Shown: one piece after another, positions 9,388-32,575 of the stretch
Numbering within the stretch: the first letter of the stretch is position 1
How the letters are laid out: each line of letters begins with the position of its first letter
DNA from: Anaerolineae bacterium
Lineage (GTDB): Bacteria > Chloroflexota > Anaerolineae > B4-G1 > SLSP01
NCBI GenBank assembly: GCA_016926915.1
Contig: JAFGNR010000228.1
Coordinates: 1 to 40,347 of the forward strand
DNA length: 40,347 nt
Direction of reading: 5' to 3'
Notes under the pieces: model-generated
Seen by the model: only the letters and a program-made list of their open reading frames with translations
What the model was told of the DNA's origin: nothing
Database searches by the model: none
Position numbers and translations under genes: made by a program

Positions 9388-9418
9388 GCAGGCGCGGGGC
9401 GTGAGTCTCGCGCCTGTT
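9387..9418 (+). terminator. Hairpin after the chaperone, weak terminator or processing site
   Basis: GGCAGGCGCGGG / CTCGCGCCTGTT stem with a poor U-tail. Confidence 0.35.
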
Positions 9419-9425: not shown

Positions 9426-9439
9426 ATTTCCCGGGAAAT
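9426..9439. promoter_or_regulatory. NBS-like palindrome copy 1 (ATTTCCCGGGAAAT)
   Basis: Perfect 14-bp palindrome, intergenic, just upstream of the RBS of the next gene. Confidence 0.7.
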
Positions 9440-9454
9440 GTCGCGGGAGGTGGG

Positions 9455-10009
9455 ATGAAGATCAAGATTGGATTGGTGAGGCAAGAGCGCTGGCGGGCTT
9501 GGTGGCGGGAGTTGGAGAACATCGGGCTGCTCAGTAATCGCGAGGCGGAGATTGTTGCTGACACGGCGCGGAGGGGCATCGCGGCAAACTTTGAGAGGGA
9601 GGCGGCGCCCAGCGGCCTCCCTTGGGTTCCACTGCGACCTATGACGCAGGCGGAGCGCGCCCGGGGCATCGATGAACGCGGGATTCCCTTCCGCGTGGGG
9701 CGTCAGCATCCAATCTTGAAACGTACCGGAGATCTCAAGGAGTCGTTCACCAATCCTCGGCATCCCCGGAATGTGACTGTCTTTGTTCGCGCGATAGGCA
9801 CGACGTTGTTGGTGCTGTCGGCGAAGGATGATCCACGGACACCAGATCGCATTCGTCGGCTGCATGCCGGCGGGATGACGGATGCGTTCCGCTACGTTCC
9901 ACCTAGACCGTTCATTGGTCTATCGGAACAAGCCACGGCGCAGGTGGAGTCGCAGGCGCGGCAGGTCGTGTATCAGCGAGCTGCGCGGCTTAATCGTAGA
10001 ACAGCATGA
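9455..10009 (+). CDS. Phage virion morphogenesis protein (Mu gpG/tail S-like)
   Basis: GGAGGT RBS; F..E..P.G.PW.PL...T, ILKRTGDL..S, H.GG and PPRPFIG motifs. Confidence 0.8.
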   Translation: MKIKIGLVRQERWRAWWRELENIGLLSNREAEIVADTARRGIAANFEREAAPSGLPWVPLRPMTQAERARGIDERGIPFRVGRQHPILKRTGDLKESFTNPRHPRNVTVFVRAIGTTLLVLSAKDDPRTPDRIRRLHAGGMTDAFRYVPPRPFIGLSEQATAQVESQARQVVYQRAARLNRRTA

Positions 10010-10127
10010 TGATGGCGCAGGCGACCATCACGATGGTCAACCCGGCCAGGAACGCGATGGTGGTGATGCGTTCGGCGACTTTGAGGCGTTTGAGGAAGCG
10101 GTCGAGTTTGCTGTCATCTTCCGACAT
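9990..10127 (-). CDS. 45-aa single-pass membrane protein (moron; not in the ORF track)
   Basis: MSEDDSKLDRFLKRLKVAERITTIAFLAGLTIVMVACAIIMLFYD*; AGGAGGT RBS; own promoter. Confidence 0.75.
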   Translation of the reverse strand: MSEDDSKLDRFLKRLKVAERITTIAFLAGLTIVMVACAIIMLFYD

Positions 10128-10162
10128 GGTGTACCTCCTGGCGGTTTAGAGAATACGGGGAA

Positions 10163-10191
10163 ATCGTAGCATGACTGATTTCAAATTGCAA
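10163..10191 (-). promoter_or_regulatory. Sigma70-type promoter of the antisense moron
   Basis: TTGCAA-17 bp-TACGAT with extended TG; overlaps the tape-measure start codon. Confidence 0.6.
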
Positions 10192-13100
10192 ATTTCCATC
10201 GATGGGCGGCAAGCCCAGGTCGAGGCCGGCCGGCTGCGGCAGGTATTGGAGCAAGAGCTGTCGCAGATCGAGGTGTCGGCTACTGGTCTGGATCAGGTCA
10301 GCAAGAAAATGGCGACGCTGCAGAGGACGGCGCGCGGCGTGGGCAAGGCATTGACTGATGGCATGGAGTCGCAATGGGCTAGGATTGACGCCAAGTTGGC
10401 CCAGATTCAGTCGCGCATGACGGGTCTGGTGCGGGCGGGGCGTTCTTCGGTAGATGTATCGGGGGTGGACAGGGCGGTATCGGCTTCGAGTAAGAAGGTG
10501 GTCGATCTCACCAGGAGCGTTGCGGACTTAAATATCGAACTGACGTCTGTTCAGGAGAGGATGTCGGAGCTGGGTAAGATTCCCGTTACTCCACTAGGCG
10601 GCGGGAAGGTGCGATCTTTGTCAGATCTGTTCCGGGGTTTTCAATCTCCTGGAACCAAGGCGTCTATAACACGGAAACTGAAAGCCGTTGAGGAGGAGCT
10701 GCAGAAGGCAACGGTGCGCATTGGCGACGAGGAGGTGAACCTTGTTGAGGCAATCAGCCAACGGCAGCAAGAGGTCATAGCAGAAGCCGAGCAAGCGATA
10801 TCTAGATTAGTACCACAGCTCGACGCCATTAACCAGGCAGTGGAGGAGAAGTTAGCGTTAAAACCTCCCGGTTCGGCCTCCGGCGTTGGTTGGTCGGATG
10901 TGCGCCAGCAGTGGGAGGCGGAATTTGACGCATTACTGCGCGAGCGGGAGGAGATCGCACAGGAGCTGGGCGAGGCACGGTCTCTAAAACTAACCGGCGG
11001 CGCGGATGAGCTGCGGCAAGAGCTTGAACGCCGGCGGCGCGAGTTGGAAGAGCCATTACGTGAAGACATGACGTTCTGGAGCGAGTGGTCTTCGAAGAAC
11101 GTCTCAGCGGTAGCGCAGGCATTACGGGCTTCCGGACAAAGTCAGGCCGCGGCGGGCCTGGAACAACTGGAGAGCCTTCTGGAGCAACAACGGCGACTCA
11201 AGCGACAATTGATAAAAGATGAGGGGGCGCTGGAGGCCGGCAGCCAGATGGAGTTACCCGGAGATGCCAAGGGTACGCTCGTGGACATGGTGGCGGCTGA
11301 GCGAGCACTGGGTGAAGCCACGAAACCAACCACCGAGGCGCTGTCAGCGCAGGCCACGGTGCTCTTACGCGTAGTTCGTCGACTAGACGAAGCCCGGCTG
11401 GCGGCTGAGGGCCTGAGCAAGGCCGAGCGGGAAGCCGTCAACAAACTTGAGGCGGCGGCCGGCGAGGAGATCCGCAGCCAGGCGAAGTCTAACGTTCCAT
11501 TGGAGGATACCGGCGCACTGTCAAGGAGCGTCTTGCAGCGCTTGGCTCAGGAAGTCCAGGCGACGACCACGGCCATGCAGGAGGCGCTCGACAAGCCAAT
11601 TACAGCCGGGGCAGAGATGCAGGCGCAGGGCTTGCTGCGGGTCTGGGAGTGGATCGCCGACAAGCTGGTCGGGCATTCGGTCATACCGGAAATGGTACAA
11701 GACATTAATCTCTGGCTGGCAAAGATCAACTACACACCAGAGCAAGATCCCTTTGCCGAGATAGCGCTGGATGCAGAGGACGCGGCTACGCGAGTTGTTG
11801 CGGCTTTTAAGGGGCTGGCTCAGGGAATGGGAAGTGCGCAGGTTGCGGAGCGCATTCGTGATTTACAAGAGGAGATCTCGCATCTCAACGCACAAGCTAT
11901 GAGCATGTTCGTCAAGGTGGGGGGGAAGGCCGACGCTCGTTACATGGCTTTGTACAATGAGGCGGTGGCTGAGGCTCGTCGCATGCGCGAAAACAACGAG
12001 GATGACGAGGCGATGTTCGCCATGGGCTATCTCCCTAGAGGATTCGGCGTGGGGAGCGGAGGGGAGTCTCGTTTCCACAAACCGGGCAAGAGTAAAACAC
12101 GTGAGGGCGTTTACCTCAGCGAAACAGATGACCGTTGGTACAAGGCGGTCTCTACAGAGATCGCCGAGAAGTCGCGTTTGTTTGCCGAGGAGCAGCAACA
12201 GCTTGACCGCTTGAGTGAAGAGATCGTCTCTAAACGTACCCAGATGGCGGTGTTAATCAACGGTCGTATGGAGGAGTTGGCTGGCCAGTTGGAAAACGCC
12301 ACCGACGAGACGACAGCGCAACGCCTCTACGACGAGATGCAGCTTCTTGAAAACGAATACAAGGAAATACCCACACGTCTCCGGGAGTTCGAAGAGCAGG
12401 TAGCCGGAGATGTCCAGAAAGCGCGTGAGCAAGCGACCGCTGCTGCGCGAGCTTATGAGCGCTCTCCAGAAGGCAAGGCAGCTGTATACGACCACAAGGC
12501 TGCTTCTCAGGAACGTATCGAGGCAGCCAAGGCTGAACGGGCAATGGTCACCCAGGAAGCCAGGGCGGCAGCACAGGCGCGGATCGAGGAAGAAAAACGC
12601 CTTACAGCGGAATCAGTAGCAGCCTCAAAGCGACGTTTAGCTCAAGACGAGGCTGAACAACGTCGCTTGACCAGCGACACTGAAGCCGGTAATCGGGCCA
12701 AGCAGGCCCAGAAAGTCGAGGCCGCCAAGCGGGTCACGTTGAAAGCAAGGGCGCAGCGGCAAGCGGAGATTGAGGAAGAGAAGCGGGCTACGCTCGATGC
12801 AGTTGCGGCGGCCAAGGAGCGAGAGCAGGTTGCTAAGCAGGAGACGGAGACGGTAAAGCAGCGGGCCATCTTGCTGCGGGCTGAGGCAGCAGAGGTGAAA
12901 CGTGTGGCTCAGCTGACCGGCACGGCGCAGCAGCTGGCGGCAGAGTTGGGTCTCAACTGGGATGATGTCCAGGACGAGATGGAGCAATCGGGCGACACCA
13001 TTGATACTGTGGTGGGTCGCCTGCGCCGGGCTTATGAGGAGCAGCGGCGCATCAGGCGCGAGGCCAACGATTCGGAGGGTAGTTACCGGGGCGTCTATGG

Positions 13101-16158: not shown

Positions 16159-16535
16159 TGGGCAACTATCGCATTGGGAGTGCATATCCCCTGGACAGTA
16201 GCGATCTGTGCGTGACGCGGTTCGGCGTTGATCCGCGCAGCACGTACAGCCCAGGAGCTGAAAGTAAGCATACGCTAGACGGTACGCTGGCGTATGTGGG
16301 CTATCCACGTTCGACGTGGCAATTTGCGTCGTTGACCATCGCGCAGTGGTCAGCGCTGAAGACACTCGCCAGCGGCTATTCGGGTACGGTCTACGTCGAA
16401 ACGCGCGACGATGATGATACTTGGAACTCCTGGCTGGCGATCTTGCGCTTGCCAGATCCGGCGTCGTTGAACCGGTGGGGCGGGAAGTATCTCGACGTCT
16501 CACTGGAGCTGATCTTGATTGAGGAACAGACGTGA
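16158..16535 (+). CDS. Putative distal tail protein
   Basis: Directly after the tape measure (TGATG overlap); about 125 aa. Confidence 0.6.
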   Translation: MGNYRIGSAYPLDSSDLCVTRFGVDPRSTYSPGAESKHTLDGTLAYVGYPRSTWQFASLTIAQWSALKTLASGYSGTVYVETRDDDDTWNSWLAILRLPDPASLNRWGGKYLDVSLELILIEEQT

Positions 16536-21099: not shown

Positions 21100-21107
21100 G
21101 AGGTACT

Positions 21108-21503
21108 ATGGGAACCAGTCCGCAATTCGTCACGACGCCCAATGTGGGCGCGCAGACCATCGAGAATAGCGACGGCACGACGGTGCTGGATGTGTTGACT
21201 GCCGGTTCCAGTGGGACGCGGATTGGACAGTTGTTCGCGGTGCATAACGATTCTACAGCGGCAGTGCTGGTGCTGTTGTGGCTGCACGACGGCTCTGAGA
21301 GCCATCTAGTGGGCCAGATCTCGATGCCGGCGGCGACGTCTTCGGATGTGCATGTGACCGGCGACTTCCTACAGTCATCTACATGGGCCGGTGTGGACGG
21401 CGGGCTGATCATCCCCAGTGGTTGGAAGTTACAGGCCGGTTTGAATACTACGCTCACGAGTGGCAAGAAATGCTCTGTGATTGCTGCCGGAGGTGACTTC
21501 TAG
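21108..21503 (+). CDS. Small tail-associated protein
   Basis: AGGAGGT RBS; LTAGSSGTRI...LIIPSGWKL...GGDF pattern seen in phage tail modules. Confidence 0.6.
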   Translation: MGTSPQFVTTPNVGAQTIENSDGTTVLDVLTAGSSGTRIGQLFAVHNDSTAAVLVLLWLHDGSESHLVGQISMPAATSSDVHVTGDFLQSSTWAGVDGGLIIPSGWKLQAGLNTTLTSGKKCSVIAAGGDF

Positions 21504-22012
21504 TGTCGTTTGGTTTGTTTGGGTTTCCACGACGCGACTTTGAGATCGTGCGTTTGCCGACGCCCCCCACGGAGGGGACGGCGTTGACTGACGGGTCTTC
21601 GTCGGGGACTGCGTATAGTCTCTGGAAGACGGAGATCGAGCTGTTGCAGACCGGGGTGCTGGCCGGGGTGCATGTGGCGTTCTTTCGCGCCAATACCTTC
21701 ACGCTATACCTGCTGGATGCGTCTGACGTGGAGATGGCTCGTTCGGGGCCGCTCACCACGACCTCGACCAGCGTTCATAGCCGGTATTTTCAGTTTGTGG
21801 GGCGGCCTATGCTTCTAACTGGCGAGCGGTACCGGCTGGAGATGCAGATAGCGACGACCACAGAGCGGATGCGTTACACGACCACCAAGTTTGTGGGGGA
21901 CGTGTACAAAGAGACGCAATCGTGGTTAGGTGGCGGTTCGAATAATGCGCATATGGTGCTGCAGTTGGCGTTCGCGCGTGACAATCGCCGCGTGTGGTAT
22001 CAATACTACTAA
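21503..22012 (+). CDS. Hypothetical tail-associated protein
   Basis: Overlaps the upstream stop; beta-rich. Confidence 0.55.
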   Translation: MSFGLFGFPRRDFEIVRLPTPPTEGTALTDGSSSGTAYSLWKTEIELLQTGVLAGVHVAFFRANTFTLYLLDASDVEMARSGPLTTTSTSVHSRYFQFVGRPMLLTGERYRLEMQIATTTERMRYTTTKFVGDVYKETQSWLGGGSNNAHMVLQLAFARDNRRVWYQYY

Positions 22013-22031
22013 TACTAATCGGAGGATGACG

Positions 22032-23810
22032 ATGTTACAAAATGGGAGCTTTGAAGCGGGCTGGGTTGATATGCCGGCTGGGAATACCTTGAACCAGGCC
22101 CCTAAATATTGGAGATTGAGTTGGGTGAACCCCGGAGAATCCTTGTATGATGCACCTAACGATCTGGCCCAGGCTTACCCCGAGTGCGTGCACAAGCCGG
22201 CGCACCTGCTACCGCCAGAGGAGCGGCCAAACGGGGCGACACCGTTGATTCTGGACGGCACGCATACGTACAAGATTTTCTCTAGTGTGGCGTATGGCGC
22301 GCAGTTGTCGCAGGAGGTCGGGAATCTGGCGCCGGGGGATGACTACCGGCTAAAGGTGCCGGTCAACTGCCACCGGCAGCGGCCGGGTGACGATCCCTAC
22401 GCCGCGGAGATTGGTGTTTGGATTAACGGCCAGGGACGGTGGCTCAATCTGGACGAGTTGCCTGATCGTCAGTGGGTTTATCCTGTCGTGGTTGGCAAGA
22501 TCGATGAGGCGGGTCAGGTCGAGGTGGTCATAAGGGCGAAGAGCAAGTCGGGCGGGTTCGACTTCTTCATCGATTTCCTGCAGGACGAGTTATTGCCGGC
22601 GCCCGATCCGGTGGACTATGTGGTGACGGTCCATCTGCTGCCCCAAGACGCGACGGGGGAGGAGATGCTCCAGGTGGCGCAGGAGGCATTCGCCAAGCGC
22701 AACACGTTGCTGTATAGCGCGGACGACGCGGCGCGGCTGGTGGCCCCGGGTCTGCCGGGATCGGCGGTGCACGTCTGGTGGCCGGAGCGTTGGACCAGCG
22801 GCGACATTGTGGCGTGGTTGCAAGGGAAGGGCGTTGACAAGGTGGTCTGGCGACCGGAGGCTCCTCCAGAGCCGCCACCGACTCTATCAGCGAAGGAGTT
22901 TGTCGGTTTGCACGTGCAGCGTGCGTGCGGCTCCGGCGGCGATCTGGAGCGAGCCTTGCTGGACTATCATCGAGAGCGGCCACCGCAGGCGGTGAAGGTG
23001 CTGAACGACACGGGCTATGCGGAGCTACTAGCGGCTGAGGGCTTCGAAGGCAACACGGTCTACCGGCACGTGTTGTCTGTCGCGTGGCAGCAGAATCTCT
23101 TGAGCATGCCCAAGCGGCAGGCGGTGGAGTGGTTCTATGCACAGCAAGCTGCCAATCTAGAGCGCTTCCCGTTTGATTTCGTCGGAGGGCTGAACGAGAT
23201 CAGCGGCGCCGGTGAACTGGAAGCGTTTGTGGCGTTTGAAGTAGAGTGGATTCGTTACCTGGCAGACCGGGGGATAAAGGCCACGGTCGGGGCCTGGTCG
23301 GTGGGAAATCCAGATCTGGCGCTAATTCCTCACGTGGCGGTGCTGGCGGCGGCGGCTGAGGCATACGGCGCTGTGATGGACTATCACTGGTATGTGCCCC
23401 AATCGCCGTGGTGCCCGTTTGACCAGGTAGCGCCAGGGACTACTAAAACGTGGTATGAGATCTTCTGGCCCGACTACCACGGGCGCTGGGCCCGTATGGA
23501 TGAGATTCTGGTGCAGGAGTATGGTATTCGTGTTGATTGGTGCTTTGGCGAGTATGGCGCCGTCGCCATTGACCAGATGTCGCGGCATATGGACCCTGGG
23601 GCGGGCTGGCGGCATCAGGACTGTCTGAATGCGGATGTGGAGCGGCTGATCGCGCTGATGCAGCGGGATGTAGCGCAGTTGCAGACGACGCGAGCGTTCC
23701 AGGAGGGGCGTGTAAAGTGGGCAAACTTCTTCACGATCAATGTGGACGACGACTGGCCATTCTTCCAGTTACATCCGGTGGATTTACAGCGACTTAGGCA
23801 AACGCTATAG
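22032..23810 (+). CDS. Multidomain glycoside-hydrolase-like protein, putative lysin
   Basis: GGAGG RBS; LQNGSFE carbohydrate-binding-like N-terminus; central LLPQDA...SADDA...W domain; TIM-barrel-like C-terminus with GLNE and FGEYG; last gene of the late operon. Confidence 0.55.
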   Translation: MLQNGSFEAGWVDMPAGNTLNQAPKYWRLSWVNPGESLYDAPNDLAQAYPECVHKPAHLLPPEERPNGATPLILDGTHTYKIFSSVAYGAQLSQEVGNLAPGDDYRLKVPVNCHRQRPGDDPYAAEIGVWINGQGRWLNLDELPDRQWVYPVVVGKIDEAGQVEVVIRAKSKSGGFDFFIDFLQDELLPAPDPVDYVVTVHLLPQDATGEEMLQVAQEAFAKRNTLLYSADDAARLVAPGLPGSAVHVWWPERWTSGDIVAWLQGKGVDKVVWRPEAPPEPPPTLSAKEFVGLHVQRACGSGGDLERALLDYHRERPPQAVKVLNDTGYAELLAAEGFEGNTVYRHVLSVAWQQNLLSMPKRQAVEWFYAQQAANLERFPFDFVGGLNEISGAGELEAFVAFEVEWIRYLADRGIKATVGAWSVGNPDLALIPHVAVLAAAAEAYGAVMDYHWYVPQSPWCPFDQVAPGTTKTWYEIFWPDYHGRWARMDEILVQEYGIRVDWCFGEYGAVAIDQMSRHMDPGAGWRHQDCLNADVERLIALMQRDVAQLQTTRAFQEGRVKWANFFTINVDDDWPFFQLHPVDLQRLRQTL

Positions 23811-23825
23811 CTAGGTTTGAATGTG

Positions 23826-23861
23826 AGCAGCCCCTTCTCATCTCACGAAGGGGCTGTTTTT
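23826..23861 (+). terminator. Intrinsic terminator of the late operon
   Basis: AGCAGCCCCTTC / GAAGGGGCTGTT stem followed by a T run. Confidence 0.8.
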
Positions 23862-23876
23862 ATTTCCCGGGGAATA
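23861..23876. promoter_or_regulatory. NBS-like palindrome copy 2 (TATTTCCCGGGGAATA, one mismatch)
   Basis: 15/16 match to TATTTCCCGGGAAATA, between the convergent operons. Confidence 0.6.
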
Positions 23877-23890
23877 TGTCGAGAGTGTCT

Positions 23891-24232
23891 TTAAGTCTGC
23901 TTCATCTCAGGATGTTTTAGATCATATACGGTGATCTTTCCGGCTCGCTTTGCCTTTTGGTATATACGACACTCGTCGGCGAGTGGACAGCGGACATCAC
24001 CTGCGTAGACAGCCTGGCACTTGGCACTTGTATACTCCGAAACAAGGTCTAGCGAAGCGTTTTCTCCGAACTTTTCCTGCGCCTCGTCTATATAGTGCCC
24101 GAGCAGCGACAGGCAAAATAGCTCACGCCTCGATCGTCTAGGTCGTGACGCCCCCGCTGTTCTGATCTCGAGATCGCGATCGTTATTATTAGGCTTCTTT
24201 TCTTCATTCTTTTCAAAAAGTGACAATTGCAT
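23891..24232 (-). CDS. Hypothetical protein with a Cys cluster
   Basis: AAGGAG RBS before MQLSLF; C...C.L...C.IY. Confidence 0.65.
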   Translation of the reverse strand: MQLSLFEKNEEKKPNNNDRDLEIRTAGASRPRRSRRELFCLSLLGHYIDEAQEKFGENASLDLVSEYTSAKCQAVYAGDVRCPLADECRIYQKAKRAGKITVYDLKHPEMKQT

Positions 24233-24245
24233 GTAGGTGAACTCC

Positions 24246-25013
24246 TTAGGCGTGATCCACAATCGGCAGGCTGCGGGCTGATCCGGAATCTAGATCAAGG
24301 TAGGTGGCATAGATATCAAGGTCTTGGGTGACCACCAGACGATACAGATACTGAGCTGCCCAAGCAGCCATAGCCTGGTTGATCATTAGACTTTGGGCAT
24401 CTTGCTGCACCAGATCGGCGCAAGATAAGCCGTTCTCATCTGGGTCTATTATGTCCAGAAGCTCCGGGTGGAGTACGGAGGGCATTGGCAAGTGCGAGCA
24501 AAAACCCAATGGCGAGATAACGGGACACGACGTATTACTATTCCCCAGCAGTACTTGCCCGGACTGCAAGTTATTACCGCAGTCCAACCACCACGCACCC
24601 AGATTGCCGGCAGCGCTGAGAATTGATTGGCGGGCGGGTGCATTGTCCACAGCTCCCACGATGATGGTAGCATTGTCAGGACTCGTATACATGTGCAACT
24701 GCGCACACGGTTGTGCCAGATACTTGATAGACAAGCCGAATGCCAGTGAGTAACGCACCGCAAGTGTGGTGGCTTTGGGCTGACCCACCTCCGCTGGTGC
24801 GAAGTTTTGCCGTCCAATGTTTTTTTCCTCAACCGTGTCTGGGTCTACGAAGGTGAGCTGTATTTTGCGGATAGCGCGCGCGTGGTAGACCAAGCGCGCC
24901 AAATGCAGAGCCAAAAACGAGCCTGTTCCGCCACAACCAACGAGTACAATGCGGTAGATCCCGGGATCCCCCAAGAGTACTGGGTAACGTTTCCCTATTT
25001 GTATCTCCATCAT
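24246..25013 (-). CDS. ThiF/E1-like adenylating enzyme (PRTRC-type)
   Basis: GCGGTGS, DPDTVEEKNIGRQNF, GAVDN, WLDCGN and SCAD (putative catalytic Cys). Confidence 0.93.
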   Translation of the reverse strand: MMEIQIGKRYPVLLGDPGIYRIVLVGCGGTGSFLALHLARLVYHARAIRKIQLTFVDPDTVEEKNIGRQNFAPAEVGQPKATTLAVRYSLAFGLSIKYLAQPCAQLHMYTSPDNATIIVGAVDNAPARQSILSAAGNLGAWWLDCGNNLQSGQVLLGNSNTSCPVISPLGFCSHLPMPSVLHPELLDIIDPDENGLSCADLVQQDAQSLMINQAMAAWAAQYLYRLVVTQDLDIYATYLDLDSGSARSLPIVDHA

Positions 25014-25597
25014 CGCCTCCGATTCAAAAACGGCCCAGTGTCGGTGAATAACACTGCCGCAGGGATGCGCCAGAAGTCACCATAAACTCCCACACGTATT
25101 GCGATCTCCGGGATCGAGTTCAGGCACCCGACAACGCCATAGAACCGACACCCTTGCTCATCACGAGTGTCGGTTTGTGAAAAGAAGGCCCGCATTGTAC
25201 CGTGGCTGTGCACCTCGGCGATGACGCTCGCCGGTTCCAGATCGCTGGTGTAGCAACTGGTCGACGGTCCGTTTACCTGGGAGGGTCGGTAAACGTGCAT
25301 CTTGTCACCGTATGGTGCAATCTGGTAAACAGCTTCATGATTGGGGTTCGCCATAGCATCACTGTAAAGCGTGCTGAGTAGCCAGCCAGGGAGGCGCCCA
25401 TAGTGCAACTCCACCCTAGGAGCCAGATTTGCTAACCCGGCAATGCGTGTCCAGGCAACCGGCACCAAAGCCTTCATGTAACGCGTCTCCGCGTACTTGA
25501 AGATCCCGTTGCCAGCCATGATGTAAGCATACTTTCCTGGCGGTAGCGAGATATCACCGCCGTTATAACACATATATTCAACCGGCGAAGGAATCAT
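25010..25597 (-). CDS. JAB/Mov34 metalloprotease (PRTRC protein A-like)
   Basis: YIMAGNGIF N-terminus; E...HSHGTMRAFFSQTDTRDE; IRVGVYG. Confidence 0.92.
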   Translation of the reverse strand: MIPSPVEYMCYNGGDISLPPGKYAYIMAGNGIFKYAETRYMKALVPVAWTRIAGLANLAPRVELHYGRLPGWLLSTLYSDAMANPNHEAVYQIAPYGDKMHVYRPSQVNGPSTSCYTSDLEPASVIAEVHSHGTMRAFFSQTDTRDEQGCRFYGVVGCLNSIPEIAIRVGVYGDFWRIPAAVLFTDTGPFLNRRR

Positions 25598-25598
25598 C

Positions 25599-26315
25599 TC
25601 ATCTAATCCTCTCTATGAAATCTTCAATACACGGACGCATGGGCACCAGCGTGTCTGCTGGATATGCTGCCGAGTCCAGGGAAATCTCTGACCAGTAGTC
25701 AATAATTTCCCTGGACTCGCCCCGCACCTTGCCCTCGCTTAGATCACGATTGAAGTCCGAGTCGAAAAACATCTCTACGGCTTCCATGATGGTTTCCGGC
25801 GCGCACACCGGAAACGCCAGTGTGCCGCTGCATATCTTGCCGTTATTGCCAACGTTGGGCACCGGTGCCCGATACAACACCTCTTTGGCTTGGGGGTACT
25901 TCTCTACGGCGACGACGTAGTACTCAACTCCCGCACCCGCGAAAATCAGTGGTGGCAGAGGTACCGAGACCTTAAGCCGCCGGTTAGGCATTAACACTGA
26001 CAGCTCGCGGCGCTGTGGTGGTAGATAAACGGCCATGACTACGCCACCCTCGTTGTGGCCATAGTATATTGTTCCCGGCGGCAGCAGCCCCGATCTCCAT
26101 GGGACATTGGCTAGAGCGGCAGCCAGCGCACTCGGATGCACCTCGTAGGTGTGTGTGGGGACGCCCATCGTACTATAACGTGTGAGGATCACAGATTCAG
26201 TGAAGATATCTAGTGTTATGGCCCTATATTGTCGGATTGGGGACTCAAGCCCTTCAGTACCGGCAATCTGCGGTAACATCACACCTTGATGAGCAAGGCA
26301 AAGCGCGTTTTTCAT
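25599..26315 (-). CDS. Prokaryotic E2 family D protein (PRTRC protein B-like)
   Basis: GLLPPG, VPLPPLIF, LYRAPVPNVGNNGKICSG (Cys retained), FFDSDFN. Confidence 0.88.
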   Translation of the reverse strand: MKNALCLAHQGVMLPQIAGTEGLESPIRQYRAITLDIFTESVILTRYSTMGVPTHTYEVHPSALAAALANVPWRSGLLPPGTIYYGHNEGGVVMAVYLPPQRRELSVLMPNRRLKVSVPLPPLIFAGAGVEYYVVAVEKYPQAKEVLYRAPVPNVGNNGKICSGTLAFPVCAPETIMEAVEMFFDSDFNRDLSEGKVRGESREIIDYWSEISLDSAAYPADTLVPMRPCIEDFIERIR

Positions 26316-27133
26316 TGGGCATTCCTTTCCATGTTCTCTATAAAGACGAGGATTTCATCTATGGACCCCTCCTTTAAGTACCAGTCCTGGAGTTTTTCCA
26401 GTTTTTCGACGCGGGGCTTAGCGGCCTGCCACGCGTCCCGCAGGAAAAGCAGATCCGGTACTTGCCAATAAAAGTCTTGAACTTCAAATAAGCCCCTCTC
26501 CCAGAGAGGAGGTGTCGTGAGAAACGGATTGGGGTCGATCTCGGTCAGCGACAGGAAAACCGTCGCCAGACCGTTGAGGGGTTCCGGTAAGTCATCCAGG
26601 GTTTCAAGAGCACGCAATGGATCCTCTGCCCATACCATATCTGGGCAGCGGTGACCGTGATACTCCCACCATTCTACCGCGATATTGGCTACAGCGGGGT
26701 CAAGTTCGCGATGCTGTGTCGCCAATACGAGTAATGGCATAGCGTAGTCTGGGATCTCGATCAGTTCCTCTAGAGAAATCCCCCATCCCACAAAAGGAAT
26801 AGGGGCCGTGAATATCTCTACTAGCGTCATTTGTTGTCCCGCCCAATACATTTCCTCTAAATAACTCATATCTAGAGGAAACAGATCGGATGCAACACAA
26901 CCGATGATCTCAGTGATCGCGTCGATTGGATCCTTGGTAAGATGCAGATCGGTATTTGGGAACAGTGTCTGTGATATCACGCCGAAGGATCCAATGAGAT
27001 GAAACCATGAAAGCAGCTCCTGGATGCTGCGATATGTTGGTATTTGGCGGGCCGCTAAGCCACGCGCAACATCCATGGTGGTTAGAACCCGGGTATTGCG
27101 TTCTGCGTGGGTGTTGGATGTAGTTGCTGGCAT
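26312..27133 (-). CDS. Uncharacterised acidic protein in the position of PRTRC protein F
   Basis: GGAG RBS before ATG 27133 (alternative 27076); between Ubl and E2. Confidence 0.65.
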   Translation of the reverse strand: MPATTSNTHAERNTRVLTTMDVARGLAARQIPTYRSIQELLSWFHLIGSFGVISQTLFPNTDLHLTKDPIDAITEIIGCVASDLFPLDMSYLEEMYWAGQQMTLVEIFTAPIPFVGWGISLEELIEIPDYAMPLLVLATQHRELDPAVANIAVEWWEYHGHRCPDMVWAEDPLRALETLDDLPEPLNGLATVFLSLTEIDPNPFLTTPPLWERGLFEVQDFYWQVPDLLFLRDAWQAAKPRVEKLEKLQDWYLKEGSIDEILVFIENMERNAQ

Positions 27134-27522
27134 TTCTCCACCAGTCTTTCTGTGTTTATCACTAACAAGTCTAAGTGCTGAAGCGCTTCTGCTATTTCCT
27201 GTTGGCGATTGACAATTTCTTCTGCAGAGGCGTTTTCCAGTTCCAGCAGGAGCGAAATCCCCGGTACCTCTAGAGGAGGGATATTTTGCAAGCAGACGAT
27301 TAGTGCTGCGCAGAGTGTTGGGCGTATCGACTGACAATAGCCTTTACGTCCTGCTCGCTTTACGAACGACACCTGGGTGATGCCATCATCACCAACGGTT
27401 TCTTCAATACGTGCCTCGGCGACCTCTGGGAAGTACGCTGCCAACTGGCGGCGTACTTCCTCTGGCGTGAACTGGTCTTCACTGTCTAAAAACTCGTAGT
27501 CCCCGTACTTATACCTCTTCAT
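27082..27522 (-). CDS. Prokaryotic ubiquitin-like protein (PRTRC protein C-like) with a C-terminal extension
   Basis: RYKY...F.D....TPEEVR..LA.YFPEVA.A...F.KRAGRKG followed by 85 further residues. Confidence 0.85.
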   Translation of the reverse strand: MKRYKYGDYEFLDSEDQFTPEEVRRQLAAYFPEVAEARIEETVGDDGITQVSFVKRAGRKGYCQSIRPTLCAALIVCLQNIPPLEVPGISLLLELENASAEEIVNRQQEIAEALQHLDLLVINTERLVEKCQQLHPTPTQNAIPGF

Positions 27523-28981
27523 TTTTCCTGCCTCCTTTTAACCCCAGATAGCTGTGCAGTAGGTCTGAGATAATACTCTGAACGTGTTCCAAATCACTAA
27601 AAAAACGCATGTCGGAGGGACCTTGTCCATCGCGTCCGATGGATGCGATGACATGCCAGTCTGGGTCTTGGCCACCGTTGGGCTCTTTGATGCGGACCAC
27701 CAACACGATATCTGGATCCGGAGTTGTCGAGACGACCGTTGTGATCGGCGCCGGGATGACAAGTGGCGAGTTTGTGGCTGCCGGCTCCGGGATGACGGGT
27801 GGCGAGTTTGTGACTGCCGGCTCCGGGATGGCAGGTGGCGAGTTTGTGACTGCCGGCTCCGGGATGGCAGGCATAATGGTTGTGGTCACGGTATGCGGCG
27901 ATTCAGGTTCCGAGTTCTCAATGCTGTCTAGAGATACGCCGGCACGCCGCCAGCATTCGGGGCAGGCATACCAAGGGGTCACGTACCGCGTCTGGTCGCG
28001 GCGCCAGATGCCAGGTACCACGCTAGGCCGTCTCTTGCAGTAGTTACACCTGTCCCAAGTGCTAGGTTCGGACTGCCCCCAGTCTTGCGGGTTAAACCCC
28101 ACTGCTAGGCGCTCGGGTCCGTCACGTTCAATTAGCCACTGCGCTTTTTTGGCGTTCTGGCAGGCAGGCTTTACGCAACGAGACTGCTTGAGCACAATCA
28201 CGTTGTGCTTACAGCCAAGGCACGCGGGCAGATCGTTCTCCGGGACCCAGTCAAGTGGGAAAGGTACGTCTTTTAGTGCGCGAGTGTACACATTCACATA
28301 CTGCTTGACGGCATCGGCGAGGTCGCGTGTCGAGCGCACCTCGCCGACATCATAAACTAGATCAAGCATGCTCTCTAATGAGGCGATGCCCACTAGAGAC
28401 GCAAGCGTGCGCCCATGCTTGGCCGTGATCGTACCATTTGCAACTAGATCCTGAATCTTCTGGGGAAGCGTGAGGAGCCGCAAAAGATTGGAGATAGTTC
28501 CCTGGGTGACGCCCCACTCGCGGGCAATTTCCTTTTGTCCTAAATCCAGATTTTTCAGTGCAATTTCGATCATGTGTGCTTTCTCGATGTCATTGACCTC
28601 TTGGCGGTCTTCATTTTCCCGCCAGGCGATCGCTGCCATCTGGAAAGCCGTGAGTTCCTGGATGTCAACCGGCATGCAAGCATATTCCGGCTGACTCTGC
28701 GCCAGATTGTGAAAAGCTCGTAGCCTGCGATGACCGAAGGCGAGCTGGACGTGTATGTTAGGTCGCTGCAAGGCATCAGCTACGCCGATGATTGTGGCGT
28801 TGAACGGCTGAGAGCCGTTTACCAGACGTCCAATGGGCACCTGAAGCAGACCCAGCGTTTCCTCGCGGGCGGGACGCAGCTCCACAATGCTCTGCATGAG
28901 GTCGTCTACCTGGTAGTCGGCAGCCGCACGGCCCTGATACGGATTGTCTTTTATCTTTTCTAGCGGAACTTTGTAGATCAT
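27509..28981 (-). CDS. parB: ParB/Noc-family CTPase with HTH, two Cys clusters and a Pro-rich linker
   Basis: NPYQGR, GLLQ.P, AFGHRRLRA (GxRR), EN..R...N.IEKA, HTH QKEIAREWGVTQGTISNLLRLL. Confidence 0.9.
   Translation of the reverse strand: MIYKVPLEKIKDNPYQGRAAADYQVDDLMQSIVELRPAREETLGLLQVPIGRLVNGSQPFNATIIGVADALQRPNIHVQLAFGHRRLRAFHNLAQSQPEYACMPVDIQELTAFQMAAIAWRENEDRQEVNDIEKAHMIEIALKNLDLGQKEIAREWGVTQGTISNLLRLLTLPQKIQDLVANGTITAKHGRTLASLVGIASLESMLDLVYDVGEVRSTRDLADAVKQYVNVYTRALKDVPFPLDWVPENDLPACLGCKHNVIVLKQSRCVKPACQNAKKAQWLIERDGPERLAVGFNPQDWGQSEPSTWDRCNYCKRRPSVVPGIWRRDQTRYVTPWYACPECWRRAGVSLDSIENSEPESPHTVTTTIMPAIPEPAVTNSPPAIPEPAVTNSPPVIPEPAATNSPLVIPAPITTVVSTTPDPDIVLVVRIKEPNGGQDPDWHVIASIGRDGQGPSDMRFFSDLEHVQSIISDLLHSYLGLKGGRKNEEV
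27751..27882 (-). repeat. 36-bp tandem repeat (about 3.5 copies) encoding PAIPEPAVTNSP
   Basis: Unit GGTGGCGAGTTTGTGACTGCCGGCTCCGGGATGGCA on the + strand; no spacers. Confidence 0.85.
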
Positions 28982-29004
28982 GGCTCTCCTTTGTTATCCC
29001 TCTC

Positions 29005-29039
29005 GCCTGCAGGCCGGTGCCCGATGCCGGCCTGCAGGC
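29005..29039. repeat. Perfect 13-bp inverted repeat upstream of parB
   Basis: GCCTGCAGGCCGG-N9-CCGGCCTGCAGGC. Confidence 0.75.
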
Positions 29040-29082
29040 CACACGAGGAGGTTTTTCGCGTCACGTTCCTCGTAGGAGCGTG

Positions 29083-29670
29083 CTAATGCTGCCGTGTTTT
29101 CTGGCCACCCGGAAGCGCGATCCTACCATCAGTGAAATGTGGCACCTGGTATTGCCAAATGTGGTCGGGTAGAGCTTCTTCATGGAGTGTAAATCTGCGC
29201 TCGCCAATCTCGTGTTGGTCTACATCAATGCGGCGCGGGATCCTCGGGCCATTCCCCGGTGAGGTTCGTACCGCGTTGTAAATCAACGCTGGTAGATCTG
29301 AAAGAGCACACGAGAAACCTGAGTTGAGTTTTCCAGCCATCGAGATATGGAGATGCGCCACACGACGCACTATCATCAGATCTAGGTTTACCAGGCGGCG
29401 CATCACCCAGGTGACGCAGCCGCTCTGGCCGATAAAGCGGTCAACCACGTAGGGGCCTTTTTCAAACCGTGCCTTAACGGCCTGTCGGTTGGACTCAGCT
29501 AGGAGATCGGGGACGTTGGTGAGTAGAGACATGAGCAGTGGAGCGGCAAGCGGGTTACCCTGGACACGGAATATCTTCAGATGATCCCGGGTGACCCGTA
29601 GGCCAACGCGACCATAATAGTTTCCCGATGGCACTGCATATGACCAGGTGAAATGTTTCAAGATGTCCAT
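29083..29670 (-). CDS. Hypothetical protein
   Basis: GGGAGAG RBS; 195 aa, co-oriented with the early operon. Confidence 0.65.
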   Translation of the reverse strand: MDILKHFTWSYAVPSGNYYGRVGLRVTRDHLKIFRVQGNPLAAPLLMSLLTNVPDLLAESNRQAVKARFEKGPYVVDRFIGQSGCVTWVMRRLVNLDLMIVRRVAHLHISMAGKLNSGFSCALSDLPALIYNAVRTSPGNGPRIPRRIDVDQHEIGERRFTLHEEALPDHIWQYQVPHFTDGRIALPGGQKTRQH

Positions 29671-29743
29671 GTCTTCTCTCCATTCTTGTTTGACGGTATT
29701 TCCGGATGTATGAGATGCGGCAGGCGCCTAAAGATGGCTTCCA

Positions 29744-30124
29744 TCATCGGCTCACTTTCCTGATGCTGGCCGAAGGTTTCCCTTCTTTGCGGAAAACGAG
29801 AATTTCTGGATGATTAAGCGCATACCCTGTTAGAGCCTTGTCGTTCCACGATACGCGTGGTTTGGTGTAAATGATTGTGAACATCTGACCGCGCAGACTC
29901 TGCGTGGTGGCGACTACAGATTGCTTCAATTCCTGCTCCAACTCCTGACGCTTTTCATCCAGAGCAGCTATCGCGTCCTCATACTCGGATTCCGCTGCGG
30001 ACAAGGCGTCGGCTACGGGTCTGAGAATCTCGTTGCGCCGGGCGCGGTACTCTAGGTTGAGCAAATCGATTTGGCTTACGAGTTCTTCATATACGGCCAT
30101 AAGTATCTGAGGGTCAATCATCAT
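29744..30124 (-). CDS. Gam/Gp157-like coiled-coil protein
   Basis: GGAGGT RBS; coiled coil followed by RVSWNDKALTGYALNHPEILVFRKEGKPSASIR. Confidence 0.55.
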   Translation of the reverse strand: MMIDPQILMAVYEELVSQIDLLNLEYRARRNEILRPVADALSAAESEYEDAIAALDEKRQELEQELKQSVVATTQSLRGQMFTIIYTKPRVSWNDKALTGYALNHPEILVFRKEGKPSASIRKVSR

Positions 30125-30130
30125 ACCTCC

Positions 30131-31105
30131 CTATAGTCTGAGACTCATCATTAGGGCCGAGAGAGCTGCGTTCCAGTCTCCGTCAGATTTTGCCGTCTCG
30201 ACCACTGCCATCACATCGAATGTGTGGGCAATCTTGCCCTGCGCCTTGAGTTCGTGGTATCTCTTCCAGAAATCTGTAGAAGAGATCGCAGCAGAGGAAC
30301 GCGGGGCGTCCTCGCGGGGAAAGTAGTCGTCTAGAGGTGACGGCGTCAGGGTATTAAAAATGCGACGCGCTTCGCGCTCGGCCAGCGATTCGGCAATCCA
30401 CGCGTTACCGTCATCCTGGTATGGCTTCAGCCATCGTAGCAACGCGTGAATCTGCCCAGCGGTCATAGACGTTAGCGATCTGTGACCGGTCAGATATTCC
30501 TGGACCGCGTGCCGGCGCTCGGCGGCATCGGCTTCACCGGCGAAGGCTTGATCCAGAACCATGGCGATCCGAGACAGGCTTTGTGGGTTGATGCTTTTCG
30601 ACCCTTTATAATCTTCGGCATATTTCATGATTTTCTGCCGCACTGTACTGGGATCATACGGTCGGGTCACGGGCGCTTGCTGAGCCTGGGTAGGTGGCGG
30701 CGGCGCTTGCTGAGTCTGAGTGGTTGACGGCGGCGCGGGCGGAGTCTTTCCAAGACGCTGCAGCAGTTTCTCTGGTAGCGGTTCTACCGGCTCATCCTCT
30801 CCGAACGTGATGAGGCGGAGATATTTCACTTCACCGTCATCACCGCGACCGCTAGAACGGCTGTACCAAATGTCGTTTCCAAATTTGGGATGCGAGCGAC
30901 GCTTCCACTCACACCCCAACGCCACCACGATCGTGGGGCCGTACGCATCACTTGCCACCACCTGGGCGCCGATCTTTCCCCAATCAAATGTGGCGTACTC
31001 ATCGATGTTCCGTCTCAGACTCGGACCCGCCTCTCGGTCGCCTTGAAGTACATGCAGTATTCCCTCAAGCGCCATTACGGCGCGTTCCAGCAGTTGATCG
31101 TTCAT
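30131..31105 (-). CDS. DdrB-like single-stranded DNA binding/annealing protein with extra C-terminal domains
   Basis: FDWGKIGA...WKRRS...IWYSR...GEVKYLRLITF resembles Deinococcus DdrB FDWSLIGA...YRRR...IKYSR...GDIEYVSLAIF (recalled from memory). Confidence 0.7.
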   Translation of the reverse strand: MNDQLLERAVMALEGILHVLQGDREAGPSLRRNIDEYATFDWGKIGAQVVASDAYGPTIVVALGCEWKRRSHPKFGNDIWYSRSSGRGDDGEVKYLRLITFGEDEPVEPLPEKLLQRLGKTPPAPPSTTQTQQAPPPPTQAQQAPVTRPYDPSTVRQKIMKYAEDYKGSKSINPQSLSRIAMVLDQAFAGEADAAERRHAVQEYLTGHRSLTSMTAGQIHALLRWLKPYQDDGNAWIAESLAEREARRIFNTLTPSPLDDYFPREDAPRSSAAISSTDFWKRYHELKAQGKIAHTFDVMAVVETAKSDGDWNAALSALMMSLRL

Positions 31106-31347
31106 ATTCTTCTCCTGATTACTCGACGCCGATTGTGCCGGCGCACCGGTCTACGACGCTTCTGGACCTTGATAATCTCCATAAGAGCGTTGATCGTCGC
31201 CCTTAGTTCTGCGATTTGCTGTGTGCTATGTGTGCTAGTCATACTGCTCTTGAGATCTGGTGTGTTTTTTTGGGGGGAGTGGATGTCGGCGCAGAGTAAC
31301 GCCAGATTCTTCTCAAGGAGCCAGTCGACGACGTCGTTTTCGTCCAT
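31102..31347 (-). CDS. Small hypothetical protein with an Arg-rich tail
   Basis: TGATG coupling to the upstream gene. Confidence 0.55.
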   Translation of the reverse strand: MDENDVVDWLLEKNLALLCADIHSPQKNTPDLKSSMTSTHSTQQIAELRATINALMEIIKVQKRRRPVRRHNRRRVIRRRI

Positions 31348-31787
31348 CAGGGCACCAGCGCCAGGTTGGCGTTCTCTATGTCCTGATATTCCCATCCGTC
31401 CAAGGCCCATGGAGGTAAGATCCTCTGTGTGTACCAAAGGTTCTTCGCCTCTTCTCGCATTTCCTTGATCTTGCGTGGGCTTCTCACGGGGATCGGTTGG
31501 CCAATCCAGGAACGCACAAGATTTTTCCAGACGCGCACTGTCCAGCCGCGATCAACCAGCCATTTTTTGATATTTTCGATGTTCAGATCCTCCTTTACTT
31601 GATCTACAACACAGCGCTGTTCGTAGGTGGAGAGAAACTCTTCGGTGTACATCCGCATCCGCCATTTATTCGTCCACGGGTTCAACACAAAGTCAATCCG
31701 GGCAATTGAATATCCGTTTCTCTCCAGGGGCTTTCCCTGGGGTTTCGGATACTCCGGATTGACCACCTGAGCTGGTTGTAAAGGCAT
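31347..31787 (-). CDS. Hypothetical protein
   Basis: AAGGAG RBS; operonic. Confidence 0.65.
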   Translation of the reverse strand: MPLQPAQVVNPEYPKPQGKPLERNGYSIARIDFVLNPWTNKWRMRMYTEEFLSTYEQRCVVDQVKEDLNIENIKKWLVDRGWTVRVWKNLVRSWIGQPIPVRSPRKIKEMREEAKNLWYTQRILPPWALDGWEYQDIENANLALVP

Positions 31788-31790
31788 CGT

Positions 31791-32054
31791 TCACTCCTTC
31801 AAAGTCTTGACTACGCGGCACATGACATTTTTGCCGCACATCCATAGGTAATAGTCGTAAACTTCATCTGTGACCGAGTCCAGGTTTTCTAGTGTCACTT
31901 GGTCCAGGGAGACGTCCTCGACCAAGCGGTAAAACGTGGGACCATCAGCGCCGTCGACCCGCACCACTGGATAGGGTGAGCGACGGCGGGTCTGCTGTGT
32001 TCTTATCAGGAAATGCTTCGATATCAAAGTTTTGACGTCCTCAGCGGTCCACAT
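31791..32054 (-). CDS. Hypothetical protein
   Basis: GGGGAGG RBS; TAATG coupling. Confidence 0.6.
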   Translation of the reverse strand: MWTAEDVKTLISKHFLIRTQQTRRRSPYPVVRVDGADGPTFYRLVEDVSLDQVTLENLDSVTDEVYDYYLWMCGKNVMCRVVKTLKE

Positions 32055-32263
32055 TAGAAAACCTCCCCGGTTTGGATCTCTGGCGCAACGACAGTTTGGA
32101 AGCAGAAAGTTTCTCTGATGGGCCAATCACCGGTATGGTCTTCGATGATTGAGATTTGGGGCGGACCCAACGGCGACCAACCCTCGGCGAGAGCATCGTT
32201 GACCTGGTCCACAAGTTCGCCAACCGAAGAAGCCGTTAGAATTTTATAACGCAGTCTGTTCAT
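32054..32263 (-). CDS. DUF1737-like protein; first gene of the early operon
   Basis: AAAGGAG RBS; YKIL......L..QVN.AL.EGW.PLG.P motif. Confidence 0.75.
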   Translation of the reverse strand: MNRLRYKILTASSVGELVDQVNDALAEGWSPLGPPQISIIEDHTGDWPIRETFCFQTVVAPEIQTGEVF

Positions 32264-32276
32264 GGAATCTCCTTTC

Positions 32277-32290
32277 ATTTCCCGGGAAAT
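32277..32290. promoter_or_regulatory. NBS-like palindrome copy 3 (ATTTCCCGGGAAAT)
   Basis: Perfect 14-bp palindrome next to the RBS of the first early gene. Confidence 0.7.
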
Positions 32291-32297
32291 TGATACT

Positions 32298-32329
32298 AAA
32301 AATCCCCCGCCGGTATTGACGGGGGATTT
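32298..32329 (-). terminator. Leader terminator/attenuator of the early operon
   Basis: On the - strand CCCCCGTC-AATACC-GGCGGGGG-ATTTTT; the G-U pair works only on this strand. Confidence 0.6.
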
Positions 32330-32432: not shown

Positions 32433-32487
32433 ATTGACGCTTGTAAAGTACAATCTAATCTTATCACAGTTATTTACACTTGTCAAT
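32433..32487. promoter_or_regulatory. Overlapping opposed promoters with inverted operator-like repeats
   Basis: Leftward TTGACA(32481-86)-17-TAAGAT(32458-63); rightward TTGACG(32434-39)-16-TAATCT; ATTGACnnnTGTAAA in inverted orientation. Confidence 0.65.
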
Positions 32488-32575
32488 AGCTAAATTGGGC
32501 ACTCGTAACTTGTCATATTGTTAGTTGGCGATATGTAGATTGCGGCGTATCTACAACTACACAGGAGAGTGCATC

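Follow-up and report, generated by a model that had tools for sequence, protein, structure and literature searches.

The prophage studied here lies on a 40,347-nucleotide contig of an Anaerolineae bacterium (JAFGNR010000228.1), the whole of which was analysed and is called the window hereafter; it is contig C135 of a 460-contig, 4,295,939-base assembly. The prophage encodes a stand-alone ParB protein (27509..28981, minus strand, 490 aa) and carries three copies of a 14-bp palindrome whose core, ATTTCCCGGGAAAT, is identical to the Noc-binding site (NBS) of Bacillus subtilis. We found that, across relatives of this ParB, the type of palindrome follows the residue at position 173 (Caulobacter ParB numbering), and this comparative covariation between site and residue is the main new evidence of our analysis. 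Because of it, the three palindromes are most likely the ParB's own loading sites. From the comparison of sequences, we regard the pairing of this protein with the palindromes as highly probable, and the full explanation, in which they serve as the parS-like loading sites of a stand-alone ParB, as probable.

The palindrome ATTTCCCGGGAAAT is present without mismatch at 9426-9439 (site 1) and 32277-32290 (site 3) and, with one mismatch, as ATTTCCCGGGGAAT at 23862-23875 (site 2). All three sites are intergenic, as an earlier note on this DNA had described, and we found no other match with up to two mismatches in the window. By chance, 0.15 matches are expected there, and none of 100 dinucleotide-preserving shuffles reached three. 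The earlier note had also seen no copy in the host flank (about 34.5-40.3 kb), which is correct, and a count over the whole assembly (4.3 Mb) returned only one further match with at most one mismatch, inside an open reading frame (ORF) of contig C100, which is about the chance level by our own arithmetic. The arms alone (ATTTC-N4-GAAAT) match five times in the genome, two of them in the window. The motif is thus not common on the host chromosome, and the palindromes are specific to the prophage.

Site 1 lies between a stop codon at 9387 and the GGGAGG-ATG start at 9455, 5 nt upstream of the GGGAGG Shine-Dalgarno sequence of a tail completion (Neck1-like) gene (9455-10009), and a hairpin (9390-9415) precedes it. 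Site 2 separates the convergent gene ends of the late operon (23810) and of the leftward ParB/ubiquitin-like (Ub-like) operon (23891), directly after a hairpin with a T-run (23827-23861). Site 3 stands where the leftward early operon begins; one side of it carries a leader hairpin (32300-32329, minus strand), and 3-4 nt downstream of it comes the Shine-Dalgarno sequence of a DUF1737 gene (minus strand, ATG at 32263). Sites 2 and 3 bracket this 8.4 kb leftward early operon, which contains the DUF1737 gene, a DdrB-like gene, parB and a Ub-like/E2/JAB/ThiF cassette. A compact GC-rich hairpin precedes each of the three sites, but adjacency to terminators was not upheld as a signal, since the folding energies of these hairpins are matched by random positions. 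A consensus hairpin scan of 22000-35000 (loop limit 8 nt; site 1 lies outside) did not list the hairpins of sites 2 and 3, whose loops are longer.

The genome contains one other ParB-family gene, on contig C110, with the features of a canonical ParB (LGRGL peptide, GERR motif, and R/T/Q/G at the four specificity positions of the helix-turn-helix (HTH)), and a single canonical parS, GTTTCACGTGAAAC. The two positions at which NBS and parS differ are exactly those at which the phage sites depart from this host parS, and the phage ParB is the sole Q-type ParB (glutamine at position 173) in the genome. Since the only other ParB is canonical and not Q-type, the host cannot explain the sites, and a host Noc-like binder of the palindromes was rejected.

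The prophage protein scores above the cut-offs of the ParB family profile (TIGR00180, 75.6 bits against 58.45) and of Pfam HTH_ParB (PF17762, 63.7 against 22.6). By aligning it with HMMER to the solved B. subtilis Spo0J and Noc proteins, we placed Q160, L166, T171 and K188 at Caulobacter positions 173, 179, 184 and 201, in agreement with the Q/L/T/K reading that the earlier note had made by hand, and the conserved contacts N178 and R204 are in register (N165 and R191). Compared with the Noc set Q173/K179/K184/R201, one of the four residues is identical and one is conservative. The accessible text of Jalal et al. 2020 (PMC7383237) names Q173 as the reader of adenine 1 and R201 as that of cytosine 6, with threonine or serine tolerated at 201. 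The proposal that the phage protein is Noc-like at both of these switch positions therefore holds for the glutamine, which is identical to that of Noc, and only in part for K188, a conservative stand-in for R201. Within the ParB subfamily of 27 members to which the protein belongs, position 173 is Q in 22, and position 201 is R in 23 and K in 4.

Relatives of this ParB are remote. The nearest ones found among 1.8 billion protein representatives are only 36% identical, megablast of 23800-33600 against phage records gave no match, and locus scans of viral and genome contigs with a single protein gave no relative. By using profile-based scans of the viral and species-genome collections, we obtained 98 loci, which make up the first set together with the window. 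We searched these for palindromes without presetting the motif (14-mers with at most one mismatched pair, clustered at no more than one mismatch and present at least twice), and 37 loci with an alignable HTH proved to have repeated parS-like palindromes; for most loci, any palindrome cluster arose in 0 or 1 of 20 shuffles. First, the base outside TTTC is A in 11 loci, all 11 of which have Q at position 173, and it is G (25 loci) or T (one locus) in the other 26, none of which has Q there. Second, the cores vary from locus to locus (CCCGGG, CCYRGG, CCGCGG, CGCGCG, CGATCG, CTGCAG, CTATAG and others) while the arms keep the parS form. Third, the inner bases follow position 201: 54 of 54 CC half-sites accompany R, T or K at this position, and CC is absent from all 108 half-sites of loci with G201.

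We then counted the two arm types directly. In the first set, the 30 loci with a Q-type ParB (547 kb) carry 38 ATTTC-N4-GAAAT and five GTTTC-N4-GAAAC sites, whereas the 69 loci with a non-Q ParB (1,083 kb) carry none of the former and 78 of the latter; a rough composition-based estimate gives about 0.1-0.6 sites per class by chance, against the 38 and 78 observed. Four of the five GTTTC sites of Q-type loci belong to L045, which was left out of the 37-locus table and of the tree because its HTH is unalignable, and the fifth is a canonical parS in L008. Counted per locus, 20 of the 27 alignable Q loci have A-type sites only, one has G-type sites only and six have none; among the 68 non-Q loci, these numbers are 0, 30 (G-type only) and 38 (none). 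Twelve loci with a truncated or unalignable HTH, picked by eye from printed segments, are labelled unalignable in these per-locus counts. For replication, we used 77 metagenome loci, of which 55 (421 kb) remained after removing 22 duplicates of earlier loci or of each other. Here the Q-type loci have three A-type sites, all in L258, against no G-type site, and the non-Q loci have one against 25. Over both sets, that is 154 loci with the L045 sites excluded, Q-type loci carry 41 ATTTC sites against one GTTTC, and non-Q loci carry 103 GTTTC sites against one ATTTC. By scanning viral contigs the other way round, from the exact 14-mer to ParB, we found a ParB-family ORF in 8 of 118 stretches among the matches listed, and the five ParB ORFs beside perfect sites with a readable HTH were all Q-type, again among the matches listed; we do not count this reverse scan as support. 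The palindrome search and the site counts of the two sets give strong comparative support to the claim of the earlier note that the phage ParB would load on its own genome at NBS-like sites, in that the base next to TTTC follows residue 173 in the 154 loci.

Several observations weigh against this reading. The best tree has four changes to or from Q, each accompanied by A at base 1, and only one of these contrasts is forced by well-supported branches; the sign test, which needs at least six concordant contrasts, is therefore not significant. Moreover, the tree kept the HTH columns (1 to 4 of 346 columns), relatedness inflates the site counts, and phylogenetic independence is thin. Many loci with G at base 1 have D, E, G or P at position 173, where canonical ParB needs R, so that the Noc/ParB code transfers only in part. 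L008 and L247 have the exact QKKR set and yet no ATTTC site, L008 having one canonical parS, and Q loci lacking any site in the fetched DNA amount to 6 of 27 in the first set and 6 of 7 in the second. Ten viral stretches with two or more sites (at most one mismatch) were listed; three of them have a ParB gene, and the other seven show none in records that are 5-54% complete. In the accessible text of PMC7383237, the QTAG and QTAR variants of Caulobacter ParB are non-functional, a lysine at 179 or 184 is required as a permissive residue and K is not among the residues listed at 201 for NBS binders, whereas the window ParB has neither K nor R at 179 and 184, both permissive lysines being missing. 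Within the window, the hairpins next to sites 1, 2 and 3 are unexceptional, as 23, 146 and 107 of 1,000 random positions fold as strongly, and no site adjoins parB itself, unlike in L090, L091 and L094, where a site precedes the parB ATG by 20-30 nt.

Some of these relatives show further features. L008, L247, L073, L227 and L258 belong to a ParB group with a one-residue insertion before the glutamine (QTQG/QSQG); L008 and L073 show ATGTCC..GGACAT-like sequences, and L258 has three ATTTCC[AG]CGGAAAT. The seven ParB-less fragments (L119, L143, L144, L166, L199, L215 and L217) each carry one perfect ATTTCCCGGGAAAT and one or two single-base variants, which differ mostly at the two central positions, while about 0.2 such extra copies are expected by chance in our estimate; their ParB may be encoded off the fragment, or another protein may bind there. 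L100, a locus with an R-type ParB, contains at 1057-8703 six to nine copies of GAAACGGCCGTTTC and near variants, in which the parS arms are everted (GAAAC...GTTTC, not GTTTC...GAAAC). In L019, five ACAAATATTTGT copies follow each other at an exact spacing of 48 bp (5067-5270), in an iteron-like manner, beside a ParB locus with two GTTTCCGCGGAAAC sites.

The architecture of the prophage protein is that of a ParB with an unusual C-terminal half. It consists of an N-terminal NTP-binding domain, the HTH, two Cys4 motifs, a Pro-rich linker and a C-terminal alpha/beta domain. Boxes I, II and III (NPYQGR, GHRR and ENEDR) align to the Spo0J motifs NPxQxR, GxRR and ENxxR, and across the 27 subfamily members Q16, G83, H84, R86, E122, N123 and R126 are invariant and R18 and R85 nearly so, as are the two Cys4 (zinc-ribbon-like) motifs, which are likewise invariant or nearly so. 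The GxRR motif is thus kept, as the earlier note had pointed out together with the lack of the Noc membrane helix: the protein begins four residues before box I, which therefore leaves no room for a Noc-type membrane helix or for a ParA-binding peptide. In an AlphaFold model (pLDDT 86.8), the ParB N-domain and HTH occupy residues 1-232, followed by a zinc-ribbon region (250-350), a disordered Pro-rich linker and a small alpha/beta domain (425-480). The best Foldseek matches of this model are ParB-CDP 6sdk (E 1.5e-12), Noc and KorB 8qa9 (E 1.3e-7), with 7nfu (TMt 0.60) and 6t1f (TMt 0.65) as further matches, and its DNA-binding domain superposes on that of the Noc-NBS complex 6y93 with a TM score of 0.83. 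The canonical C-terminal dimerisation domain (PF23552) gave no Pfam match in this protein. However, pairing through 421-479 is predicted for two copies of residues 236-490, with a score of 0.54 against 0.00 for the best of three controls; of the proteins solved as homodimers, 20 of 30 reach this mark, and of those solved as monomers, one of 23, a calibration that is only rough as we used an alignment of our own. At least 63% of contacts agree between the runs, and the pLDDT of the partner is at least 57. This predicted pairing supports, although it does not show, a dimeric clamp architecture.

On these grounds we propose the following course of events. A ParB dimer, held together by the family-specific C-terminal domain, would recognise the palindrome through its HTH, Gln160 reading the outer A:T pair as Gln173 does in Noc and Lys188 lying at the position that would read the inner C:G pair, as suggested by the covariation and by the published Noc code. 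Boxes I, II and III would then allow binding of a nucleotide, probably CTP, closure of the clamp and departure along the DNA, as the motifs and the fold suggest. That the 14-mer matches the Bacillus Noc site exactly would be due to convergence, and would separate the phage sites from the canonical parS of the host. For the CTP-dependent sliding clamp put forward in the earlier note, the motifs, the fold match and the predicted C-terminal dimer speak in favour, and we infer CTP binding, clamp closure and sliding from them. What counts against that part of the claim is the nature of the nucleotide: a 2025 survey (PMC12704722), in its accessible part, warns that the bound nucleotide cannot be predicted from sequence, and also describes orphan ParBs on prophages as common and uncharacterised.

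The leftward operon that contains parB begins with the DUF1737 gene (32054..32263, minus strand). Downstream of parB, and on the same strand, lie genes for a Ub-like protein (27082..27522; Prok_Ub / PRTRC_C-like), a conserved cassette protein without family match (26312..27076; about 254 aa if the ATG at 27076 is its start, and here called the 254/341-aa gene), an E2-like protein (25599..26315; Prok-E2_D, best NCBIfam match PRTRC_B), a JAB-type peptidase (25010..25597; Prok-JAB, best NCBIfam match PRTRC_A) and an E1-like ThiF-family protein (24246..25013). The last one scores 162.5 bits with TIGR03736 (PRTRC_ThiF), above the cut-off of 144.75, whereas ParB (33.7 against 278.6), A (53.4 against 101.8), B (73.2 against 131.45) and C (33.2 against 45.95) stay below their PRTRC equivalog cut-offs. 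PRTRC proteins D, E and F were not detected: in an NCBIfam scan of ten ORFs, the other operon ORFs tested, including the conserved 254/341-aa gene, gave no match. We call the cassette PRTRC-like because ThiF passes its cut-off and the other four fall far below theirs. In the Ub-like protein, another 85 residues follow the beta-grasp domain, whose last residues are ...AGRKG (up to residue 61), while tblastn matches of relatives span only about 59 residues; this extension may be a precursor part trimmed by the JAB peptidase or a fused extra domain. The order ParB, Ub-like, unknown, E2, JAB, ThiF is kept in the ten closest loci (L089-L095, L098, L101/L102), and tblastn found ThiF in 15 of the 98 loci. 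A site lies directly after ThiF in L090 and L095.

Several other explanations of the palindromes have to be weighed. That the three copies reflect chance or base composition has next to nothing in its favour except their small number: no shuffle reached three and the same motif class recurs in relatives, so that we give this idea practically no weight. More serious is a different binder, in which another phage or host protein (a repressor, or a factor associated with terminators or promoters) would occupy the palindromes, and the link with residue 173 would be hitch-hiking within lineages. Such a binder would fit the one to four independent contrasts behind the covariation, the seven multi-site viral fragments without a ParB gene and the placement of two window sites where operators would be. 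We consider it very unlikely all the same: the covariation runs in the direction that the solved Noc and ParB complexes predict, the parS architecture (TTTC-N4-GAAA) is kept over many core variants and always in ParB-encoding loci, the site counts are far above the rough chance estimate, and the host lacks a Q-type ParB. The sites could also be centromeres by which ParB positions or segregates an extrachromosomal form of the phage, with the help of a host motor or of a ParA whose gene would be on the missing left end. The linear plasmid-prophage N15 is known to have dispersed centromere sites, and the left end of the prophage lies outside the window, so a ParA could lie there. Nevertheless, the integrase and the continuation of the contig into host genes argue for integration, the ParB lacks the N-terminal ParA-binding peptide that the host ParB has, and no match to the ParA-type ATPase family PF13614 occurs on contig C135, the eight matches being on other contigs and the prophage left end lying beyond the window. 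No ParA turned up in the cassettes of relatives either, though no search aimed at ParA was made there. We hold this centromere role to be distinctly improbable.

The remaining alternative makes ParB and its sites the DNA-targeting arm of the Ub-like cassette. The clamps would recruit the Ub-like, E2, JAB and E1 enzymes, or be modified by them, and modification would take place at or close to phage DNA; a specific DNA sequence would thereby act as the template for protein tagging, with ParB and its sites as the address label of a phage-borne Ub-like conjugation machine. The conserved gene order in the closest relatives and the presence of ThiF at 15 of 98 loci agree with this, as do the sites on either side of the cassette or of its operon in the window, L090 and L095, the zinc-ribbon and C-terminal region private to this ParB subfamily, and the definition by NCBIfam of a 'ParB-related, ThiF-related cassette'. 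However, gene linkage is by itself weak evidence, and 83 of the 98 ParB loci have no ThiF in the fetched DNA and still carry sites, which means that the sites do not need the cassette. We therefore regard this arrangement as unlikely, though the tethering of the Ub-like enzymes would be the most novel output of the bound ParB. Having weighed these explanations, we retain ParB loading sites as the probable role of the palindromes.

With regard to the function of the bound ParB, a Shine-Dalgarno sequence together with a start codon and an ORF occurs within 45 nt of 34 of the 104 sites counted across all loci, compared with 904 of 5,200 random positions (17%). Since sites lie near Shine-Dalgarno sequences and at operon ends, the most likely output is the control or insulation of phage transcription units, as with KorB on RK2 and BisD on ICEclc; that transcription control is the main output is a tentative proposal, to which we give slightly less than an even chance. 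The ORFs that we scanned with Pfam include no recognisable CI-like repressor, and for this reason it is conceivable that ParB spreading from the three sites could act as a prophage silencing system. Marking of the phage DNA, also raised in the earlier note, may be another output. Partition is an unlikely output.

Comparison with Noc reveals both likeness and divergence. Besides the identical 14-bp core of its site (B. subtilis; structures 6y93 and 7ol9), the phage system shares with Noc a glutamine at the base-1-reading position, a basic residue at the base-6-reading position, and a ParA-independent protein of the ParB-paralogue type with several dispersed sites. Noc has about 70 sites on its chromosome, while the phage protein has three on the phage, is encoded in Chloroflexota and has no known link to cell division. 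It also differs from Noc by lacking the membrane-targeting helix and K179/K184, by having K rather than R at 201, and by a C-terminal half made of zinc ribbons and a predicted new dimer domain. Although the Noc profile TIGR04285 gives the highest NCBIfam score of the protein, this score (82.3 bits) is far below the cut-off of 315, and Spo0J outscores Noc (69.5 against 54.2) in a sequence search of the PDB. We therefore rejected orthology with Noc, and the likeness is probably due to convergent use of the ParB recognition code, not to descent from Noc.

The closest working analogues are found on other mobile elements. KorB of plasmid RK2 (8qa8, 8qa9) is a ParA-independent clamp of the ParB family which loads at its own dispersed sites, operator-like palindromes (OB) spread over the element and in many cases near promoters, and controls element promoters. 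KorB works with KorA and with the ParA protein IncC. The phage system differs by the sequence of its sites, by the lack of a ParA or a known co-repressor and by its location on an integrated phage. On an integrated element, the closest analogue is BisD of ICEclc, an orphan ParB-like CTP clamp with an extra domain that ParB lacks, which uses palindromic sites of its own for loading, travels tens of kb along the DNA and regulates promoters of the element, according to the accessible text of Antar et al. 2025 (PMC12409273). The same text describes two 23-bp bisS sites, unrelated in sequence to those of the phage, and activation together with BisC in a Pseudomonas integrative and conjugative element (ICE); PRTRC, ThiF and ubiquitin are not mentioned in it. 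The PRTRC systems of NCBIfam (TIGR03734-TIGR03738) have the same gene content as the phage cassette (ParB, Ub-like (C), E2 (B), JAB (A) and ThiF), and each window gene has a PRTRC model as its best NCBIfam match except ParB, for which it ranks third; unlike them, the window cassette is on a phage rather than on a plasmid or an ICE. In the literature searched, we found no paper that connects a phage ParB with NBS-like sites or a Ub-like cassette, and none on the function of PRTRC. Iyer et al. 2006 (PMC1779556) does not mention ParB, and the accessible part of PMC12704722 mentions neither ubiquitin, ThiF nor PRTRC.

The prophage itself is of the siphovirus type, with genes for a scaffold protein, a head protease, a major head protein of the HK97 type and a tape measure protein of 1,995 aa. 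It is integrated, since a tyrosine integrase gene is present (32525..33583, plus strand) and the contig continues into host genes from about 34.5 kb (APH-family kinase, GH3 beta-glucosidase, LacI-family regulator and DUF4386). Between the integrase gene and the prophage end, a gene for an Mrr-type restriction endonuclease (33790-34467, plus strand) is likely a defence moron. The window contains no tRNA that we could find and no match to an Rfam family. The GH3 protein of the host flank is 81-88% identical to database proteins, the named ones (81-85%) coming from metagenome-assembled genomes (MAGs) called Anaerolineae, Anaerolineales or Ardenticatenaceae, and the species-genome relatives of the window ParB are almost all in Chloroflexota MAGs. 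Because of these two sets of matches, the host most likely belongs to the Chloroflexota and not to the Firmicutes, in line with the earlier note, which had placed the system outside the latter.

Other elements of possible regulatory interest were noticed in the window. Upstream of site 3, by 170 nt, a promoter-like site (TTGACA-17-TAAGAT with a TG extension; 32458..32486, minus strand) would serve to transcribe the leftward operon, with a leader in which a hairpin is followed by site 3. A second promoter-like site on the plus strand (32316-32344) faces that of the minus strand (32486-32458) in the region between the integrase gene and the early operon (32298-32486); it would give a transcript of ~75 nt that ends near 32420 at a hairpin with T-run and is antisense to the leftward operon's leader, in which the hairpin at 32300-32329, just before site 3, is terminator-like. 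Facing promoters with a leader hairpin resemble an antisense-RNA or attenuation system. The ribosome-binding site of parB is immediately preceded by a perfect 14-bp stem (GGCCTGCAGGCCGG...CCGGCCTGCAGGC; 28985-29045, minus strand), in the place that a ParB site occupies in close relatives. Another palindrome, GCAATCGATTGC, has three copies in the window (1168-1179, 38010-38021 and 39087-39098): one precedes the host LacI-family gene by 19 nt and another lies between this gene and the GH3 beta-glucosidase gene, placed as LacI-type operators would be, while the third is inside a phage-side ORF (1048-1440), near a glycosyl-hydrolase gene (2086-2880).

If the palindromes are indeed the loading sites of the phage ParB, the ParB/Noc specificity code, which was worked out by mutagenesis in one scaffold, also appears to be in use in nature across a large and diverse set of phage ParBs. 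These proteins would then be ready-made orthogonal ParB/site pairs that differ at base 1 and at the central four bases, and that would be useful for DNA labelling tools and for studying how DNA-binding specificity evolves. An integrated temperate phage would also join the short list of elements (RK2 with KorB, ICEclc with BisD, pINV with VirB) that have a ParA-less ParB clamp on their own DNA. Furthermore, the predicted cognate DNA sites would offer a concrete and testable handle on the uncharacterised cassettes of ParB and Ub-like proteins known as PRTRC. Should ParB and its sites prove to be the address label of the Ub-like machinery, the system would be a bacterial-virus counterpart of chromatin ubiquitylation.

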